The notes: generated by a model not told the origin, from the sequence alone. A DNA stretch of 18,162 nucleotides from an uncultured delta proteobacterium (GCA_963763745.1 CAVXQJ010000001.1:258431-276592), one strand, 5' to 3'. Numbered from the stretch's first letter, positions 4,715 through 18,162 are shown. A program made the numbers and translations.

Positions 4715-6096
4715 TAAGTCACGAGCCAGCATCGACACCTTAACATCATTTCTCCGCAACGCTCGCGTCGCGGTCGCGATCGCCGCCGACGTCCATCGTC
4801 ACGTCGAGCGTCTCCGTCGCGCCCGCGGTGATCGACACGCGGCGCGTTTGAGGCGGCGCGGTCGGGTGCGTGAATTTCGACGAAGTGCACGCCGGGCGCG
4901 AGCGGGATCGCGCGCGCGACCGGCGTGACGGCTGCGCGCTGACCATCGATTGCGACCTCCGCCCACGGCGTCGCGAGGACGCGCAAGAAACCCGGCTTCG
5001 CGGGAAGAAGCGGACCCTCGGTCGCGGCGGACGCTTGCTCCGCGCTGCGATCGGTCGCGTGGATCACGGCGAGCGCGGACACGAGCGCCGCACCGAAGAG
5101 CGCGAAGCTCCATGGCGACATCGTCAGCGGACGGCGCGGCTCGCTCGCGCGCACGAGCGACGGCACTTCGCCCGACACCAAACGCGCCGACGCGAGCGCG
5201 CCTCGCACGAGCTGCCGCATCGGAAGCTCGGTGCGCGAACGCACGAACTCGGTGAGCTCCTCGGCGACCACGTCCGCGGACATCGGCCTGTCCGCTGGAT
5301 GCTTCTCGATGCAGCGCATGACGACGCGCTCGAGCGCGCGCGGAACGTCCGGCGCGCGCTGGCGCAGCTGCACGGCCGGGCTCGTTCGCGACGCGTGCGC
5401 GGGCGCGCGCTTCTCGCCGGGTCGATCGAACGGACGCACGCCGCACAAGAGTTGATACAAGACGACGCCGAGCGAGAAGAGATCGCTCGGCGCGCTCGCC
5501 GCTTCGCCGAGCAGCTGCTCCGGCGCCATGTACGCGGGCGTTCCGAACGCGCCGGGCTGCGCAGTTCCTCGTGCCGGCGTCTCGTTGTCGAACGCGGGGA
5601 TTGGCTCGTCCGCCGAAGGAAGCCGCTCGCGATGCGCGATGCTGAAGTCGACGATCTTCACCTCGCCTTGTCGCGACAAGATCACGTTCGCCGGTTTCAC
5701 GTCGCGATGAATCACGCCGCGCTCGTGCGCGTGCGCGAGCCCCTCCGCCACCGCCGCGCCGATCGCCGCGACCATCTCGGCGCGCAGCTTCGGCTTCTTC
5801 GCGAGGAGCTCCGAGAGCGAGAAGCCCGAGATGTACTCGAGCACGAGATACATCTGGGTCTCCGACTTCACGTAATCGAGGAGCAAGACGATGTTCGGAT
5901 GCGACAGTCCCGAGAGCACACGCGCTTCGCGTTCGAGCTGCGTCGCGAACGTCGATGACGGCGGGATCGTTCCCTTCAACGCTTTGATCGCGACCTTGCG
6001 ACCAAGCGGCTCTTGCGACGCGAGATACACCGTGGCGATCGCGCCCGAGCCGAGCTCGGAGATCGTTTCGTAGCTTCCGAATCGCGGCAGCTCCAT
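4714..6096 (-). CDS. Hanks-type Ser/Thr protein kinase with one TM helix and a C-terminal extracytoplasmic PEGA domain (3' end frameshifted; the corrected stop would be at 4746)
   Basis: MELPRFGSYETISELGSGAIATVY.., VAIKALK, HRDVKPANVIL, DFS (DFG variant), GTPAYMAPE. TM helix WSFALFGAALVSALAVIHA, then a PEGA-like segment PGFLRVLATPWAEVAIDGQRAAVTPVARAIPLAPGVHFVEI. At about 4873-4880 (aattt) the PEGA consensus continues in the +1 frame (THPTAPPQTRRVSITAGATETLDVTMDVGG.. stop at 4746), while the printed frame runs into an Arg-rich tail that overlaps the SD of the next gene. The start ATG (6094-6096) overlaps the gpmI stop in ATGA. Confidence 0.85.
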   Translation of the reverse strand: MELPRFGSYETISELGSGAIATVYLASQEPLGRKVAIKALKGTIPPSSTFATQLEREARVLSGLSHPNIVLLLDYVKSETQMYLVLEYISGFSLSELLAKKPKLRAEMVAAIGAAVAEGLAHAHERGVIHRDVKPANVILSRQGEVKIVDFSIAHRERLPSADEPIPAFDNETPARGTAQPGAFGTPAYMAPEQLLGEAASAPSDLFSLGVVLYQLLCGVRPFDRPGEKRAPAHASRTSPAVQLRQRAPDVPRALERVVMRCIEKHPADRPMSADVVAEELTEFVRSRTELPMRQLVRGALASARLVSGEVPSLVRASEPRRPLTMSPWSFALFGAALVSALAVIHATDRSAEQASAATEGPLLPAKPGFLRVLATPWAEVAIDGQRAAVTPVARAIPLAPGVHFVEIHAPDRAASNAPRVDHRGRDGDARRDDGRRRRSRPRRERCGEMMLRCRCWLVT

Positions 6097-7632
6097 CAGC
6101 GTGTGAGCAGCGGAATGCCCGTCATCGCGGCGGGCTGAGGAAGACCGAGGAGCGCGAGCATCGTCGGCGCGACGTCGCAGATGCGTCCGCCGCTTCGAAC
6201 GTGCGCGCCCGCGTCGGCGTCGTTGACGTAGAGGAGCGGCACGGGGTTCAGCGTGTGCGCGGTGTGCGGCTCGCCCGTCGCGGGATCTTTCATGAGCTCG
6301 CAGTTTCCGTGATCCGCCGTGATGATCACCGCGCCGCCTTTCTTCCGCGCTGCATCGACGATCGCGCCCACTTGCGCATCGACTGCTTCGACCGCGTGAA
6401 TCGCCGCGTCGAGCACGCCCGTGTGGCCCACCATGTCCGGGTTCGCGAAATTCACGAGCACGAAATCGAATCGATCCGATTCGATCGCGCGAACGACCGC
6501 TTCACCAACGCCCTTTGCGCTCATCTCGGGTTTCTTGTCGTACGTCGCGACGTCCTTCGGCGATGGGATCATCGCGCGCTCTTCGCCCGCGAACGGCTCC
6601 TCGCGACCGCCGTTGAAGAAGTACGTCACGTGCGCGTATTTCTCGGTCTCCGCGCAACGGAACTGCGTGAGCCCGGCGCGCGCAATCACTTCGGGGAAGA
6701 TGTCCGTGAACGTCTGTTTCGGAAACGCGATGGGCAAACCGAACGACGCGTCGTACGTCGTCATGCATCCATAGCGACCCGCGAACGGCGCGCCGGCATG
6801 GGGTGCGCGCGGGAAGCCGTCGAACTTTTCGATCGCGAGAGCGCGCGTGAGCTCGCGCGCACGGTCTGGACGAAAGTTGCAGTGCTGCGCGGAGTCCTTT
6901 CCGATCTCGACCCCCGCGTAATCGCCGACGACGAACGGCTCGACGAACTCGTCCGTCTTGCCCGCAGCGATCGACGCTTCGATTCCAGAAACCGCGCTCT
7001 CGTGGCGCGGGCCGAGCGCGAAGACGATCGCGTCGAATGCTTTTTGAACGCGCTCCCAACGGTTGTCGCGGTCCATCGCCCAGTAGCGCCCGCTCACCGT
7101 TCCGATTCGACCTTTTCCCGCGAGATGCTTCTCGAGCTCGGCGATGTACCTCGGCGCCGTCTTCGGTTGCACGTCGCGCCCGTCCAAAAATGCATGCATG
7201 ATGCAACTAACGCCGCGCGCGTGCGCCGCGTCGATGACGGCCATGATTTGCGTGAGGAGCGAGTGGACGCCGCCGTCGGAGCAGAGGCCGAAGAGGTGGA
7301 GCTTTCCGCCGCTCGCCTTGGCTTGCTCGATGCGATCCGAGAGGACCGCGTTCTTGCCGAGCGAGCCATCGAACACCGCGTTGTCGATGCGCGAGATGTC
7401 CATCATCGCGATGCGACCCGCGCCGAAGTTCAAGTGGCCGACTTCGCTGTTTCCCATTGGCCCGGCGGGAGGCCGACGTCGGGCCCGCTCGTGCCGATGA
7501 GCCCGTGCGGATTTTCGAGAAGAGCTCGGCGAGGCGCGGCGCCTTCGCGAGTCGCACGGCGTTGTCGGCCGCCTCGGCGCGCTCGCCGAAGCCGTCCAAA
7601 ATGACGAGCACGAGTGGCCGCGGACGTTTCAT
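6096..7632 (-). CDS. gpmI: 2,3-bisphosphoglycerate-independent phosphoglycerate mutase (iPGM); reading frame broken twice near the 5' end by 1-nt homopolymer deletions
   Basis: The N-terminus MKRPRPLVLVILDGFGERAEAADNAVRLAKAPRLAELFSK (ATG 7630-7632) is in the frame of ORF 7207..8733. The next conserved block NPHGLIGTSGPDVGLPPGQ is in a second frame. MGNSEVGHLNFGAGRIAMMD onwards is in the third frame (ORF 6096..7457) and runs through canonical iPGM motifs to the C-terminus (ITADHGNCE..). The junctions fall at the T-runs gattttcg (7511-7518) and cattgg (7455-7460). Confidence 0.9.
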
Positions 7633-7658: not shown

Positions 7659-8764
7659 TCAAAACGGGAGGACGTCGGTTGGTATCGCGCGCGACTCGAA
7701 CGTTCCGTCGCCGAGCTGACCGCTTTGGTTGCTGCCCCAGCACACGATGCGCTCGTCCGAGAGAATGGCGCACGAATGAAACGAGCCGCACGCGATGGCG
7801 GTCGCGCCGCTCGCAATCGCAGTGACGGGCTTGGTCGACGAAGCGGTCGTCCCATCGCCGAGCTGGAACGTGCTGTTCGCGCCGAAGCAAACGACGGCGC
7901 CCGTCGCGAGGAGCGCGCACGTGTGCGAATCGCCCGCGCAAACGTCCACGACTCCGCTCGTCAAGCTTCCGTCGCCGAGCTGGCCGGCTGCGTCGAATCC
8001 GAAGCATGTGAGCGCGCCGGCCGCGACGATGCACGTGTGTGTGCCGCCGAGCGCGATCTTCGACGGCGCGCTCGCGTTCGTTTTCGTCGGCACACAAACG
8101 GTCGACGTCTGGCCGTCGCCGAGCTTTCCGCTGTCGTCGTCTCCCCAGCACATGAGGCCGCTCGTCGTGATCGCGCACGCATCGAACTCGAGACCGAGCG
8201 CGATCGATGTCGCGCCCGTGACGCCGTTCGCGACCGGCGTGAGCGCGTTCGTGATGTCGTTGTTTCCGAGCGCGCAATATCCGCCCTGACCGAAGCAGCG
8301 CACGCTTCCATCGAGCGCCACCGCGCACGTCGTTCCGTAACCCGCCGCGATCGCCGCAGACGGCGGGAGTGCGATGGGCGTGGTGATCGCGTGCGACGCG
8401 TTCGTGCCGTCGCCGAGCTGCCCGAATGCGTTTTCGCCGAAGCAATACGTCGCGCCGGCCGACGTGATCGCGCACGCGTGATCGACGCCGACGGAGAGCG
8501 CCGTCACCGCGGCGAGCGAAAACGCGACGGGCTTCGGTTGATTTCCTCCGAAGAGTTGACCGAAGCACGCGAGCGCGCCGCTCGAACGCACCGCGCAAGT
8601 CGTCGCCGCGCCGGCGCTGACGAGCGGCGTTGCGTTCGGCGGGCGAGCCGCTTCTGCGGAGAGCGCGTCGTGCGACGCGTCTTGTGCCCCATCGAGCTCG
8701 GTGCGCGATCCACACGCGACGAACAGGACGCACACGCCGACGTGCGCGGCTCTCGATTCTGACA
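7659..8764 (-). CDS. RCC1-repeat (regulator of chromosome condensation-like) beta-propeller lipoprotein
   Basis: ORF 7659..8852; the preferred start is GTG 8762-8764 (VSESRAAHVGVCVLFVACGS, lipobox-like FVAC), because ATG 8852 would overlap the divergent rnhA. There are about seven RCC1 repeats with the hallmark C(F/W)G.N..GQLGDG (CFGENAFGQLGDG, CWGDDDSGKLGDG, CFGFDAAGQLGDG, CFGANSTFQLGDG, CWGSNQSGQLGDG). It ends 26 nt upstream of gpmI. Confidence 0.8.
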
Positions 8765-8781
8765 CTCCACCATAGTATCCA

Positions 8782-9453
8782 ATGTCGATGCCGTGGAAGG
8801 AGGCCTCGCTACGCGGACAGCGCGTGCTCGCGCGCGTGAAGGCCGACGGCACGCTCGACGAAAAAGAGAGCCGCGTGGAGATTCGCTATCGCGAAACCGA
8901 TGGTCGCGCGTACCACGCGCGCGCGGCGAACCTCGTGGTCGCCAAGGACGCGAAGGTGATGTCCGACGACACGTGCGCCCCCGCGGACAAACCGAAGGCG
9001 AAGACGGCCAAAGCGCCCGAAATAAACCATGCAGACTACAAGGATTCGTGGATCGCCTACACGGACGGCGCGTGCACGGGAAATCCCGGGCCCGCGGGGA
9101 GCGGGACGATCGTCATCGCGCCCAGCGGAAAGATCGCCGAGTCGTATGCGTACCTCGGCGAAGGGACGAACAACGTCGCCGAGCTGACGGCGATCGAGAA
9201 GGCGCTCGAGCGAACGCCGCGCGAGGAGTCGCTCGTGCTCCACACCGACAGCCAGTACGCGATCGGCGTTCTCACGAAGGGATGGAAGGCGAAGGCGAAC
9301 ACCGACCTCATCGCGCGCATTCGCAAAGCGCTCCACGGCCGGCGCGTGCGGTTCGTGTATGTGCCGGGTCACGCGGGCGTTCCGATGAACGAGCGCGCCG
9401 ACGAGCTCGCGCGCGAAGCGATCAAGACGCGCTCGAGCTCGCGCGCGGAGTGA
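8782..9453 (+). CDS. rnhA: Ribonuclease HI with an atypical ~90-aa N-terminal extension
   Basis: The C-terminal 140 aa match the RNase H fold signature: IAYTDGACTGNPGPAGSG, GTNNVAELTAI, LHTDSQYAIGVLTKGWKAKAN, VPGHAGVPMNERADELAREA (the DEDD catalytic residues are in place). The N-terminal region MSMPWKEASLRGQRVLARVKADGTLDEKESRVEIRYRETDGRAYHARAANLV is coding-like but does not resemble the canonical hybrid-binding domain. Confidence 0.9.
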   Translation: MSMPWKEASLRGQRVLARVKADGTLDEKESRVEIRYRETDGRAYHARAANLVVAKDAKVMSDDTCAPADKPKAKTAKAPEINHADYKDSWIAYTDGACTGNPGPAGSGTIVIAPSGKIAESYAYLGEGTNNVAELTAIEKALERTPREESLVLHTDSQYAIGVLTKGWKAKANTDLIARIRKALHGRRVRFVYVPGHAGVPMNERADELAREAIKTRSSSRAE

Positions 9454-14804: not shown

Positions 14805-15431
14805 ATGAAAAAGCTCTTCCTCTTCGCCGCTCCGATCGCCGCGCTTGCGTGCTTCGCGTGCTTCGTGTCGCCGCCATCTTCGAGCACGTCGTCCACCACG
14901 ACGGGTCAGGCGCTCGCGACGTCGCTCGCGTGCGCGTCGTGTCATGGCTCCGACTTCTCGGGATCGGAATCGCCGATCGCGCCGGGCGTCTACGCCGCCA
15001 ACCTCACGCCCGACATCGCGACGGGTCTCGGCTCGTGGAGCGACGACGACATCACGCGCGCGATTCGCACCGGTCAAGACGATCAAGACAGCGCGCTGTG
15101 CGCGAAGATGCCGCGCTTCTCCACGCTCGCGGATGATCAAGCGAGCGCGCTCGTCGCGTACCTGCGATCGCTTCCAGCGATCGCACACGACATCCCGGAG
15201 AGCGAGTGCGACGCGCCACCCGATCTCGACGACGGAGGACCCGGCGACGGCGGCGTCGACATCGTCACGGACGACGCGCCTTCGTGCGAAGGCTTCGCCG
15301 ACCCCAACACGACGGCGACGTGTCACGCGTGCTCGAGCGGCCAAGCGTCTTGTCAGCACAACGGCTGCTTCGGCGGATACTTCTGCGACCTAGCAGCGCT
15401 GCATTGCGTCCCAAAGCCGAGCGGATGTTGA
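14805..15431 (+). CDS. Secreted or lipoprotein c-type cytochrome (class I) with a C-terminal Cys-rich extension
   Basis: Signal peptide MKKLFLFAAPIAALAC. Heme-binding CASCH (CXXCH). Met ligand in MPRF. Class I cytochrome c tail LADDQASALVAYLRSLPA. A C-terminal ~70 aa follows with 8 Cys (SCEGF..TCHACSSGQASCQHNGCFGGYFC..HCVPKPSGC). Confidence 0.8.
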   Translation: MKKLFLFAAPIAALACFACFVSPPSSSTSSTTTGQALATSLACASCHGSDFSGSESPIAPGVYAANLTPDIATGLGSWSDDDITRAIRTGQDDQDSALCAKMPRFSTLADDQASALVAYLRSLPAIAHDIPESECDAPPDLDDGGPGDGGVDIVTDDAPSCEGFADPNTTATCHACSSGQASCQHNGCFGGYFCDLAALHCVPKPSGC

Positions 15432-15443
15432 GACGCGCTGGAC

Positions 15444-15463
15444 GTGAACGCGTGCGCGTTCAC
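15444..15463. promoter_or_regulatory. 20-bp inverted repeat GTGAACGCG-TG-CGCGTTCAC between the cytochrome c stop and the czcA start
   Basis: Perfect 9-bp arms with a 2-nt spacer, 13 nt after the cytochrome c stop and 68 nt before the czcA ATG. It is followed by CCCCGAAAAAATAGGG, an A-run rather than a T-run, so it is not a canonical plus-strand intrinsic terminator. It could be a regulator binding site for the efflux gene or an atypical terminator. Confidence 0.3.
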
Positions 15464-15530
15464 CCCGAAAAAATAGGGCGATTTGCGATCGCGCGACTCG
15501 GCGTTCTAGTTGCATGTAGCGCGCCAGCTC

Positions 15531-18162
15531 ATGATCCAACGCCTCGTCGGAATCGCGGTGCGATCTCCGTTCGTCGTTCTCGTCTGTGCGCTCGTGCTCG
15601 TGTGCGCGGGGCTCTTCGCGTTTCGGCAGCTCGACATCGAAGCGTATCCAAATCCCGTCCCGCCGATGGTCGAGGTCATCACGCAGCCACAAGGTTGGAG
15701 CGCCGATGAAGTCGAACGTTACGTCACAGTTCCACTCGAGGTCGGCCTCGCGGGAATGCCCGGGCTCGATCACGTTCGCAGCCAATCGCTGTTCGGTTTG
15801 TCCGACGTGAAGTGCTACTTCGCGTGGGGCACCGACTACGAGAAGGCGCGGCAGGAAGTCATCAACCGGATCGGCTTCGTCAACATGCCGACGGGCGTGC
15901 AACCGGGGCTCTCGCCGTGGAACGCGATCGGTGAAGTGTTCCGCTACACCGTCGAAGGCGACGGCTACGATCTCAAAGAGCTCAAAGCCCAAGAAGACTG
16001 GGTGCTCGAGCGGCAGTTCAAGCAGGCGAAGGGCGTCATCGACGTCACGAGCTTCGGCGGCGAGACGAAGGAGTACCACGTCGACGTCGACCCGTTCCGC
16101 TTGAAGGGCCACAACGTGAACCTCACGCAGCTCATGACTGCGATTCAAGCGGCGAACCAGAACGTCGGCGGGCAGCGGCTCTTCATCGGCGAGCAGAGCT
16201 ACGACGTGCGCGGCATCGGCCTCTTCAACAACCGGCACGACATCGAGAACGTCGTCGTGCTCGAGCAAAAGGGAACGGCCGTGCGCGTCCACGACGTCGC
16301 CGACATCGAAGTCGGCCACGCGCCGCGCCTCGGAAGAATCGGCAAGGACGATCGCGCCGACGTCGTACAGGGCATCGTCCTCATGCGCTACGGCGGCGAG
16401 ACGGAGCCGACGCTCCAAGCGGTGCACGCGCGCGTGAAGACGATCGAAGAACGCCATCTCCTCCCGCCCGGCATGCGCATCGTCCCGTATTACGACCGCG
16501 GCGATCTCGTCCACGTGACGACGCACACGGTGCTCGAGAACCTCCTCCTCGGCATGGGGCTCGTGAGCGTCGTGCTTCTCTTGTTCCTCGGGCACGCGCG
16601 CGCCGCGCTCATCACCGCGCTGAACATTCCGATGGCGCTGATGATCGCGTTCTGCGGGCTCGTCGGAACGGGAACGTCGGCGAACCTCATCTCGCTCGGC
16701 GCGGTCGACTTCGGCATCGTCGTCGATTCGACCGTCATCATGATGGAGAACATTTTCCGTCACGTCGGCGCGCACGGGCGCGGATCGATCCAGGATCGCG
16801 TGCTCGCGGCCGCGCGCGAAGTGGCGACGCCCATGACGTTCTCGACGCTCATCATCGGCGTCGCGTTCTTGCCGCTCTTCACGATGACGGGCGTCTCCGG
16901 CGTCATCTTCGCGCCGATGGCGCGCACGTACGCGCTCGCGATCGGCGGCGCGATCATCCTCGCCCTCACGCTGACACCCGTCTTGGCGAGCAAGCTCCTT
17001 CCCGCGACGGCCGAGGAAAAAGAAAATTTCCTCATGCGCGCGATCCACCGCATCTATCGCCCCGCGCTCACCAAAGTCCTCGCGAAGCCGCGCCTCTCGC
17101 TCGGCCTCGGCATGCTCCCGCTCGTCTTCTGCATCGCGCTCTTTCCGTTTCTCGGAGGCGAGTTCATGCCGAAGCTCGAAGAAGGAAACTTCTGGATCCG
17201 CGCGACGCTCCCGATGAGCGTCAACCTCGATCAATCGGCGAAGTACGTCGAGCGCATGCGCGGGATCTTGCGGCAGTGCCCGGAGATCGTGACGGTCGTC
17301 TCGCAAGTGGGCCGCCCCGACGACGGCACCGACGTGAGCGGCTTCGGCAACATCGAGTTCTTCGCGCCGCTGAAATCGTTCGATCAGTGGCCGCGCGGCA
17401 TGACGAAAGAGAAGCTCACCGACGATTTGAACAAGCAGCTCTCGTCCGCGTTTCCGGACGTCGTCTTCAACTTCTCGCAGATGATCAGCGACAACGTCGA
17501 AGAGGCGGTGTCGGGCGTGAAGGGCGAGAACTCCGTCAAAGTGTTCGGCCCGCGCATCGCCGACAACGAGAAGATCGCCGAGCAGATGTCGAACATCCTC
17601 GAGAAGGTGCGCGGCATCCACGATCTCGGAACGTTCCACTCGCTCGGCCAGCCGAGCATCCACATCGTCCCCGATCGGCTCGCGTGCGCGCGCTACGGGC
17701 TCAACACGGGCGATGTCGGCAACGTGATTCAAGCGGCGATCGGCGGGCGCGCCGCGACGCAGGTGTTCGAAGGCGAGAAGCGCTTCGACGTCGTCGTTCG
17801 ATGGAAGGAACCGTATCGATCGTCGGTGGAGGCGATTCGCGAGATCAACGTCGCGACGCCCGACGGCTCGTCGATCCCACTCGGACAAATCGCGAAGATC
17901 ACGATCGAGGACGGCGCGAGCGTCGTGTATCGCGAGGACGGCCTTCGCTACACGCCCGTGAAATTTTCGGTGCGCGGTCGCGACCTCGCGAGCACGATCG
18001 AGGAAGCGAAGAGGCGCATCGACGACGAGGTCCACCTCCCATACGACACGCACATCGAGTGGAGCGGCGAGATCAACGAGCTGAAAGAAGCGCAGCACGG
18101 CTCCTCGTCATCGTCAGAGCACGAGTTGAACGAAGAACGGAGAACGGTTACCGTATTGCTCG
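15531..18162 (+). CDS. czcA: CusA/CzcA-family heavy-metal efflux RND transporter permease (5' 877 codons; continues beyond the window; the last ~55 nt are frameshifted or non-native)
   Basis: It is absent from the ORF track because there is no in-window stop. The ATG at 15531 opens MIQRLVGIAVRSPFVVLVCALVLVCAGLFAFRQLDIEAYPNPVPPMVEVITQPQGWSADEVERYVTVPLEVGLAGMPGLDHVRSQSLFGLSDVKCYFAWGTDYEKARQEV.., which is collinear with CzcA/CusA. Further motifs: GAVDFGIVVDSTVIMMENIFRH, the periplasmic loops, and EWSGEINELKEAQ. The expected RLLVIVP then appears in a shifted frame and the final 46 nt do not encode the expected TM helix. The antisense 902-aa ORF 15390..18098 is spurious. Confidence 0.9.
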   Translation, partial: MIQRLVGIAVRSPFVVLVCALVLVCAGLFAFRQLDIEAYPNPVPPMVEVITQPQGWSADEVERYVTVPLEVGLAGMPGLDHVRSQSLFGLSDVKCYFAWGTDYEKARQEVINRIGFVNMPTGVQPGLSPWNAIGEVFRYTVEGDGYDLKELKAQEDWVLERQFKQAKGVIDVTSFGGETKEYHVDVDPFRLKGHNVNLTQLMTAIQAANQNVGGQRLFIGEQSYDVRGIGLFNNRHDIENVVVLEQKGTAVRVHDVADIEVGHAPRLGRIGKDDRADVVQGIVLMRYGGETEPTLQAVHARVKTIEERHLLPPGMRIVPYYDRGDLVHVTTHTVLENLLLGMGLVSVVLLLFLGHARAALITALNIPMALMIAFCGLVGTGTSANLISLGAVDFGIVVDSTVIMMENIFRHVGAHGRGSIQDRVLAAAREVATPMTFSTLIIGVAFLPLFTMTGVSGVIFAPMARTYALAIGGAIILALTLTPVLASKLLPATAEEKENFLMRAIHRIYRPALTKVLAKPRLSLGLGMLPLVFCIALFPFLGGEFMPKLEEGNFWIRATLPMSVNLDQSAKYVERMRGILRQCPEIVTVVSQVGRPDDGTDVSGFGNIEFFAPLKSFDQWPRGMTKEKLTDDLNKQLSSAFPDVVFNFSQMISDNVEEAVSGVKGENSVKVFGPRIADNEKIAEQMSNILEKVRGIHDLGTFHSLGQPSIHIVPDRLACARYGLNTGDVGNVIQAAIGGRAATQVFEGEKRFDVVVRWKEPYRSSVEAIREINVATPDGSSIPLGQIAKITIEDGASVVYREDGLRYTPVKFSVRGRDLASTIEEAKRRIDDEVHLPYDTHIEWSGEINELKEAQHGSSSSSEHELNEERRTVTVLL
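18117..18162. other. Non-native 46-nt terminal tail, lower GC, resembling nanopore sequencing adapter sequence
   Basis: agagcacgagttgaacgaagaacggagaacggttaccgtattgctcg. The last 15 nt, GTTACCGTATTGCT, are close to the 3' end of the ONT ligation adapter as I recall it (..TTCGTTCAGTTACGTATTGCT). The upstream TGAACGAAG matches the reverse complement of the same adapter (CTGAACGAAGT). The czcA reading frame and conservation stop exactly here. Confidence 0.4.

Follow-up and report, generated by a model that had tools for sequence, protein, structure and literature searches.

Sequencing adapters left in public sequence records have been described in two settings that are relevant here. The first is adapter contamination of GenBank entries, in which fragments of the ONT top and bottom adapter strands co-occur near record ends in more than 1000 accessions (PMC13182109). 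The top and bottom pieces lie within a few tens of bases of each other, and the terminal adapter stands past the point where homology ends, as exemplified by the plasmid CP163936.1. The threshold of that survey was at least 95% identity. The second setting is the unsplit or chimeric nanopore read, in which the adapters are found mid-read: an insert is followed by the bottom strand, the top strand and then the next insert. Such reads are handled by the middle-adapter splitting of Porechop and by split_on_adapter of duplex-tools (the latter in PMC12313526). The ligation adapter itself is given in one published source as AATGTACTTCGTTCAGTTACGTATTGCT at the read start and GCAATACGTAACTGAACGAAGT at the read end, and for the current kit as the top strand CCTGTACTTCGTTCAGTTACGTATTGCT and the bottom strand GCAATACGTAACTGAACGAAGTACAGG. 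The ONT adapter sequences used in this analysis were taken from papers.

The end of the window (the whole stretch of 18,162 nucleotides that was analysed) shows the same arrangement. Its last 47 bases, at positions 18116-18162, are an assembly artefact without a biological feature, and they represent the documented phenomenon of ONT-adapter residues in a noisier form. The likeness to the GenBank cases includes the adapter family, the close spacing of the top and the bottom-like pieces, and the position beyond the end of homology. The copy in the window differs from those cases in its noise, as the bottom part is 71% identical and the top strand lacks its 5′ half, so it would fail the survey threshold and probably identity-based screens as well. 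The GenBank cases also lie at record ends, which for the window tail is the probable position. Compared with chimeric nanopore reads, the order of the parts is the same, but the tail is found in an assembled consensus and the second insert is limited to 2 nt. The features at the window end are as follows.

15531-18095, plus strand: in-frame part of a czcA-like RND pump gene, based on ACR_tran, ZneA/CusA and Polyangiaceae homologues
18096-18097, plus strand: remnant CA of codon 856, one base short, with the frame shifted, seen as a gap against L001 and L002
18098-18115, plus strand: last genomic bases, RLLVIV in the shifted frame, based on translation and relatives
18116-18140, plus strand: probable garbled bottom strand of the ONT ligation adapter, which follows an insert, after the dA-tail base, based on alignment
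18141-18146, plus strand: AGAACG between the adapter parts, presumably in place of the expected 15-nt 5′ half of the top strand
18147-18160, plus strand: 3′ end of the ONT ligation-adapter top strand, which precedes an insert, based on GTTACCGTATTGCT against GTTACGTATTGCT
18161-18162, plus strand: CG, two bases after the adapter, possibly the start of a second insert, read directly and too short to test

The gene at the window end is an open frame on the plus strand that runs uninterrupted from 15531 to the last base. Its product is an RND transporter, which matches Pfam ACR_tran with E=1.5e-184 over profile positions 3-862 of 1021, the match ending at residue 856. The closest solved structures are heavy-metal pumps, ZneA (4k0e, E=3e-169, query 1-855) and CusA (E=5.5e-119, query 1-856), and both alignments end at nucleotides 18093-18098. 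The closest database proteins, P0001-P0006, are full-length CzcA-like proteins of the Polyangiaceae (1024-1049 aa), 84-92% identical to the product of the window gene. The in-frame part corresponds to residues 1-855 of about 1035, and over this range the product resembles the HME-RND transporters CzcA, CusA and ZneA. The full-length ACR_tran architecture of about 1020-1050 aa is not reached in the window, where some 180 C-terminal codons are absent because the sequence ends, without a stop codon. No gene for a membrane-fusion or outer-membrane partner was found beside czcA in the window or in the relatives L001 and L002.

The point at which the gene is lost was located by comparison with the DNA of relatives. 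L001 is a contig of a Microflora Danica MAG, and L002 shows synteny with the window across ten genes; further relatives were added by searching species-representative genomes for a conserved 26-mer, which gave seven matches, the source contig not being among them. Eight relatives, all of them Polyangiaceae, are listed across the break in total. Against L001 and L002, czcA is 87-88% identical through GCGCAG (18090-18095), and the last in-frame residue is Q855. A one-column gap then appears at codon 856, opposite CAG CGC in L001 and GCA CGC in L002: the window reads GCGCAG-CA-CGG, where the relatives have a complete CAG, GCA or GAG before CGC. The following bases, CGG CTC CTC GTC ATC GTC (18098-18115), encode RLLVIV, which is identical in P0003 and P0006 and is replaced by RLLIIV or RLMIIV in the other relatives. 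Past this site, all eight relatives go on with PLTLL or PITLL (CCG/CCC CTC/ATC ACG CTG), and in each of them the gene is intact at the break point. The window instead passes at the junction 18115/18116 from ...CTCGTCATCGTC to AGAGCACGAGTTG....

The loss of frame thus lies 65-66 nt and the loss of homology 47 nt from the window end, the latter exactly at the start of the adapter-like sequence. When the tail is aligned with the continuation of the gene in the relatives, scores from -8 to +4 are obtained, inside the range of shuffled sequences. The relatives match one another at 29-36 of the same 47 nt. The GC content of the tail is 0.51 compared with 0.66 for the window, and just 1.9% of the window 47-mers are that low. 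The tail as a miscalled part of czcA is ruled out, as it lacks similarity to the expected continuation of the gene. The initial annotation had described a czcA that loses frame and conservation near the end, with RLLVIV in a shifted frame and a remainder that is lower in GC and encodes nothing CzcA-like. The alignments, the relatives and the base composition all agree with this description, and only its distances, about 55 nt and 46 nt, have to be replaced by the measured ones.

A continuation of the tail as genomic sequence elsewhere, which would have spoken against an adapter, was not seen in relatives at 72-88% DNA identity, these being relatives only and not the same genome. No independent assembly of the same strain was found by protein, shadow-frame and 24-mer searches. 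With the C-terminal 165 aa of CzcA, the best match reached 69-71% identity, the opposite-strand shadow frame, as called in a Logan gene prediction, returned nothing, and a window-specific 24-mer taken just before the junction had no match in the JGI metagenomes.

The tail was compared with a panel of 16 adapter sequences in both orientations, giving 32 comparisons. At 18147-18160, GTTACCGTATTGCT agrees with GTTACGTATTGCT at 13 of 13 bases with one inserted C, so that the last 13 nt of the top strand (...TTCAGTTACGTATTGCT) are present with one inserted base. The top-strand score of the tail was reached by none of 3000 shuffles (z=6). The adapter end proposed in the initial annotation is therefore present in the tail, although it is not terminal, since CG follows it; the suggested alignment with ONT and Illumina adapters likewise identified the ONT ligation top strand and nothing significant from Illumina. 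Short adapter matches taken singly prove little, because a chance match of 10 nt to the adapter 3′ end occurs at 8440-8449 on the minus strand, within a genuine RCC1-repeat gene. This second CGTATTGCT (8441-8449, minus strand) was rejected as an embedded adapter, as it lies inside intact RCC1-repeat coding sequence and the match stops at 10 nt. The adapter argument is carried by the length, the two parts, their orientation and their position in combination, and not by a short motif.

The second part of the match starts right where homology stops, in the orientation that is expected after an insert. Here AGAGCACGAGTTGAACGAAGAACGG aligns with A+GCAATACGTAACTGAACGAAGTACAGG at 20 matches, 5 mismatches and 3 gaps (20 of 28 columns, 71%), including an exact 9-mer, TGAACGAAG, at 18127-18135 and a terminal AC-GG against ACAGG. 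These 20 of 28 columns concern 18116-18140 and the bottom strand GCAATACGTAACTGAACGAAGT(ACAGG), placed right after the insert on the same strand. This score was equalled by 25 of 3000 shuffles before correction for the 32 comparisons, so the bottom-strand match taken by itself is of modest significance and may be called suggestive. Between the two parts, where AGAACG (18141-18146) aligns poorly with CCTGTACTTCGTTCA, the top strand has no recognisable 5′ half. Taken together, the two parts are more distinctive. Among about 29,000 genomic 47-mers from the window and the relatives, none reaches both adapter scores, the best sum being 34 compared with 41 observed. The score of the composite bottom-plus-top junction was reached by none of 20,000 shuffles and at just 3 chance sites in about 100 kb of real sequence.

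Within the panel, comparable scores were otherwise limited to the top strand of the older LSK109 kit, to the ONT strands in reverse complement and to the composite junction made from them, all of which share the same matching bases. None of the Illumina TruSeq and Nextera, PacBio SMRTbell, MGI, ONT rapid, native-barcode flank and cDNA primer sequences matched the tail significantly. The best adapter outside the ligation family was TruSeq R1, which raises the question of Illumina read-through from a hybrid or short-read assembly. The bases AGAGCAC...TGAAC (18116-18131) do resemble AGAGCACACGTCTGAAC of TruSeq R1, with a local score of 10.5, but 81 of 3000 shuffles do equally well, which is not significant over 32 comparisons. 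The resemblance ends after TGAAC, where the match to the ONT bottom strand goes on (CGAAG.AC.GG). A TruSeq origin predicts a match to AGATCGGAAGAGCACACGTCTGAACTCCAGTCAC together with the P7 end; beyond the R1 value, the P7 end shows no match (465 of 3000 shuffles equal), and GTTACCGTATTGCT is left unexplained. The probability of a TruSeq origin is accordingly minute.

An abrupt end of homology at 18115/18116 together with a drop in GC is also what a real insertion or rearrangement would produce, with a mobile element or foreign DNA placed in czcA after codon 862 and the adapter likeness being coincidental. Genes for DDE transposases are found at a distance of a few kb from the czcA homologue in L001, which indicates that IS elements are present in the lineage. 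A coincidence would nevertheless have to extend to two parts of the ONT adapters in the correct relative order and orientation. The sequence also does not behave as a repeated element: each half of the tail is unique in the window when up to 3 mismatches are allowed, and among 241 million JGI metagenome records the first half is never matched exactly. The terminal sequence thus shows no recurrence in the window or in JGI, while the other end of such an element would lie outside the window. No repeat beyond an 8-mer joins the tail to its surroundings in the window. All eight relatives are intact at the break point, and a deletion of the base-call type stands 18 nt upstream of the junction. Just 47 nt are present past the junction, and neither a transposase nor a second end or target duplication is available within them. 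The mobile element in czcA, which had been raised as the more interesting alternative, is not borne out, as the tail does not recur, the relatives are intact and the adapter match explains the tail. A real insertion or rearrangement is highly improbable.

The window end is very probably a technical artefact of an ONT ligation library, the tail being adapter sequence and not genome. The order of the parts suggests how it may have arisen. The genuine Polyangiaceae chromosome runs through the czcA-like gene to 18115. Next would come the 3′-end adapter of the sequenced strand, represented by the bottom-strand sequence at 18116-18140, and then the starting adapter of the next strand, represented by the 3′ part of the top strand at 18147-18160 and followed by two bases. 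The stretch 18147-18160 cannot belong to the czcA insert, because the top strand there is oriented to precede an insert. The bottom-then-top order would result if two molecules passed back to back through the pore and were written as one read; imperfect splitting of such a two-molecule read would be another route to the same order. An adapter dimer formed by ligation would, from the structure of the adapter, be expected to read top and then bottom. A chimeric read is thus the probable source of the tail, as judged from the order and orientation of its parts. This read would be the outermost one at the contig end, and its untrimmed overhang may have entered the consensus at approximately single-read depth. 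Such a depth would account for the badly called adapter and for the base missing 18 nt before the junction. Three traits, i.e., the poor adapter call, the lost 5′ half of the top strand and the deletion, fit one or very few reads at a contig edge, and coverage at the window end was probably low. The earlier view that the contig end is a read end holds with respect to the ONT adapter, but a plain read end has to give way to a junction of two adapters.

A further point is where the window lies in its contig. It had been described as probably a complete contig, which is not the case, the window being an excerpt. Exact look-ups assign five of the window's proteins to a single NCBI/ENA record each, a contig of 276,592 bp. 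An adh_short protein of the window is placed on a 276,592-bp contig by a cluster look-up, and for the cytochrome c a 1.7-kb Logan contig was returned. Among the five are a 460-aa kinase with a frameshifted C-terminus and a 453-aa iPGM with a truncated N-terminus. The 276,592-bp contig carries the window DNA, because the kinase and iPGM sequences depend on the frameshifts of this assembly. In all likelihood, the window end is the contig end and the window is the terminal 18 kb. A contig end is favoured because a boundary 2 nt past the last adapter base is otherwise hard to explain.

Since the window is an excerpt of the 276,592-bp contig, the adapter junction could also be internal to it, with a chimeric read having joined the czcA locus to unrelated DNA in a misassembly. 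The orientation of the top-strand adapter predicts a second insert, and two extra bases (CG) are present. Such a join would, however, require an independent boundary to fall within 2 nt of the last base of the adapter, for which the chance is about 1 in 10,000 or less, and this coincidence is directly explained by a contig end. The product of a czcA cut at the window end is absent from the records, which would agree with an internal join; this is a weak point, as 4 of the 9 complete ORFs looked up are also absent, probably due to start-codon calling. The 877-aa and 884-aa products of a czcA cut at the window end, which are absent from the protein collection, are uninformative either way. The CzcA product of the window was likewise absent from the clusters of the six closest CzcA proteins. 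An internal join, which would be an artefact too, is considered unlikely. A tail that turned out to be real foreign DNA in czcA after codon 862, or an adapter inside the 276-kb contig as the sign of a chimeric join within a public MAG, is very unlikely.

An end that was assembled from long reads would be in agreement with the remainder of the window. Compared with the syntenic L002, three further single-base indels that break the frame were found in conserved genes. A Ser/Thr kinase carries an insertion near 4878, and the phosphoglycerate mutase (iPGM) gene carries two deletions, near 7458 and 7514 and 56 nt apart. These frameshifts fit a long-read-only consensus, as far as can be judged from the sequence. 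The initial annotation had spoken of homopolymer indels; the single-base indels are present, three beyond czcA, but among the four, including that at codon 856, just the one near 7514 (TTTT) is located in a homopolymer run. The general impression of an uncorrected long-read consensus is unaffected by this. Among the relatives, the closest (L001/L004 and L006) are MAGs of the Microflora Danica project. Its libraries were made with SQK-LSK114, the reads were split with duplex-tools and passed through Porechop, and the Flye assembly was followed by a single Medaka round; no short reads were used (PMC12313526). The window may plausibly derive from data of this type. Consensus errors are also the probable cause of the frameshifts in the kinase and the iPGM.

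The significance of the tail itself is limited to data hygiene. The degraded copy, with about 71% and 93% identity by part, shows how adapter remnants slip into public long-read MAGs. For the annotation of this locus, it is advisable to trim the last 47 bases and to disregard the missing base at 18096-18097, and czcA should be entered neither as truncated nor as frameshifted or interrupted. The same caution is warranted for the pseudogene calls of the kinase and the iPGM. In the organism, czcA is not biologically truncated; as in all relatives, a further 180 codons or so almost certainly follow.

The gene context of the czcA-like RND pump gene was compared over three regions: 14805-18115 of the window, 10001-13111 of L001 (a Microflora Danica MAG contig) and 9316-13108 of L002, a close relative syntenic with the window. 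In none of them is the RND gene adjoined by a membrane-fusion (CzcB) or an outer-membrane (CzcC) gene. The gene is preceded by a cytochrome c gene in the window and L002, and by a sigma-70/anti-sigma pair in L001, which also carries transposase genes near its czcA homologue.

L001 18429-21545: two DDE_Tnp_1 transposase genes, lying downstream of the czcA homologue at a distance of 5-8 kb

IS elements are therefore active in the lineage; no relation was seen between these transposase genes and the 47-nt tail of the window.

The strand opposite czcA carries a long open frame, which is a high-GC shadow ORF.

Window 15390-18098, minus strand: open frame of 902 aa

The same cytochrome c gene, identical to that of the window, is found on a 1.7-kb Logan contig (run ERR11594405), on which the gene call appears to have used the frame opposite czcA.

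When L002 is taken as the reference, the Ser/Thr kinase frame is broken by a single-base indel near 4878 (window 4870-4885), and that of the phosphoglycerate mutase (iPGM) is broken twice, by single-base indels near 7458 and 7514, which lie 56 nt apart.

Window 7455-7460 and 7510-7516: iPGM indel sites, from the comparison with L002

Such indels in both genes are probably consensus errors rather than marks of pseudogenes, and their aberrant products, of 460 aa (kinase) and 453 aa (iPGM), are present in public protein collections. Proteins encoded in the window are on record from one NCBI/ENA contig of 276,592 bp, which makes the window an excerpt of a longer sequence; the species-representative genomes matched by a conserved 26-mer did not include the source.

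Between iPGM and RNase H, the window holds an RCC1-repeat gene, whereas the syntenic L002 has only an 86-nt spacer.

Window 7659-8852, minus strand: RCC1-repeat gene (Pfam RCC1, RCC1_2, WD40_RLD)

Inside this gene, positions 8440-8449 match the end of the ONT adapter over 10 nt by chance. The RCC1-repeat gene is, by its presence in the window and the bare spacer in L002, a gene-content difference between close relatives.
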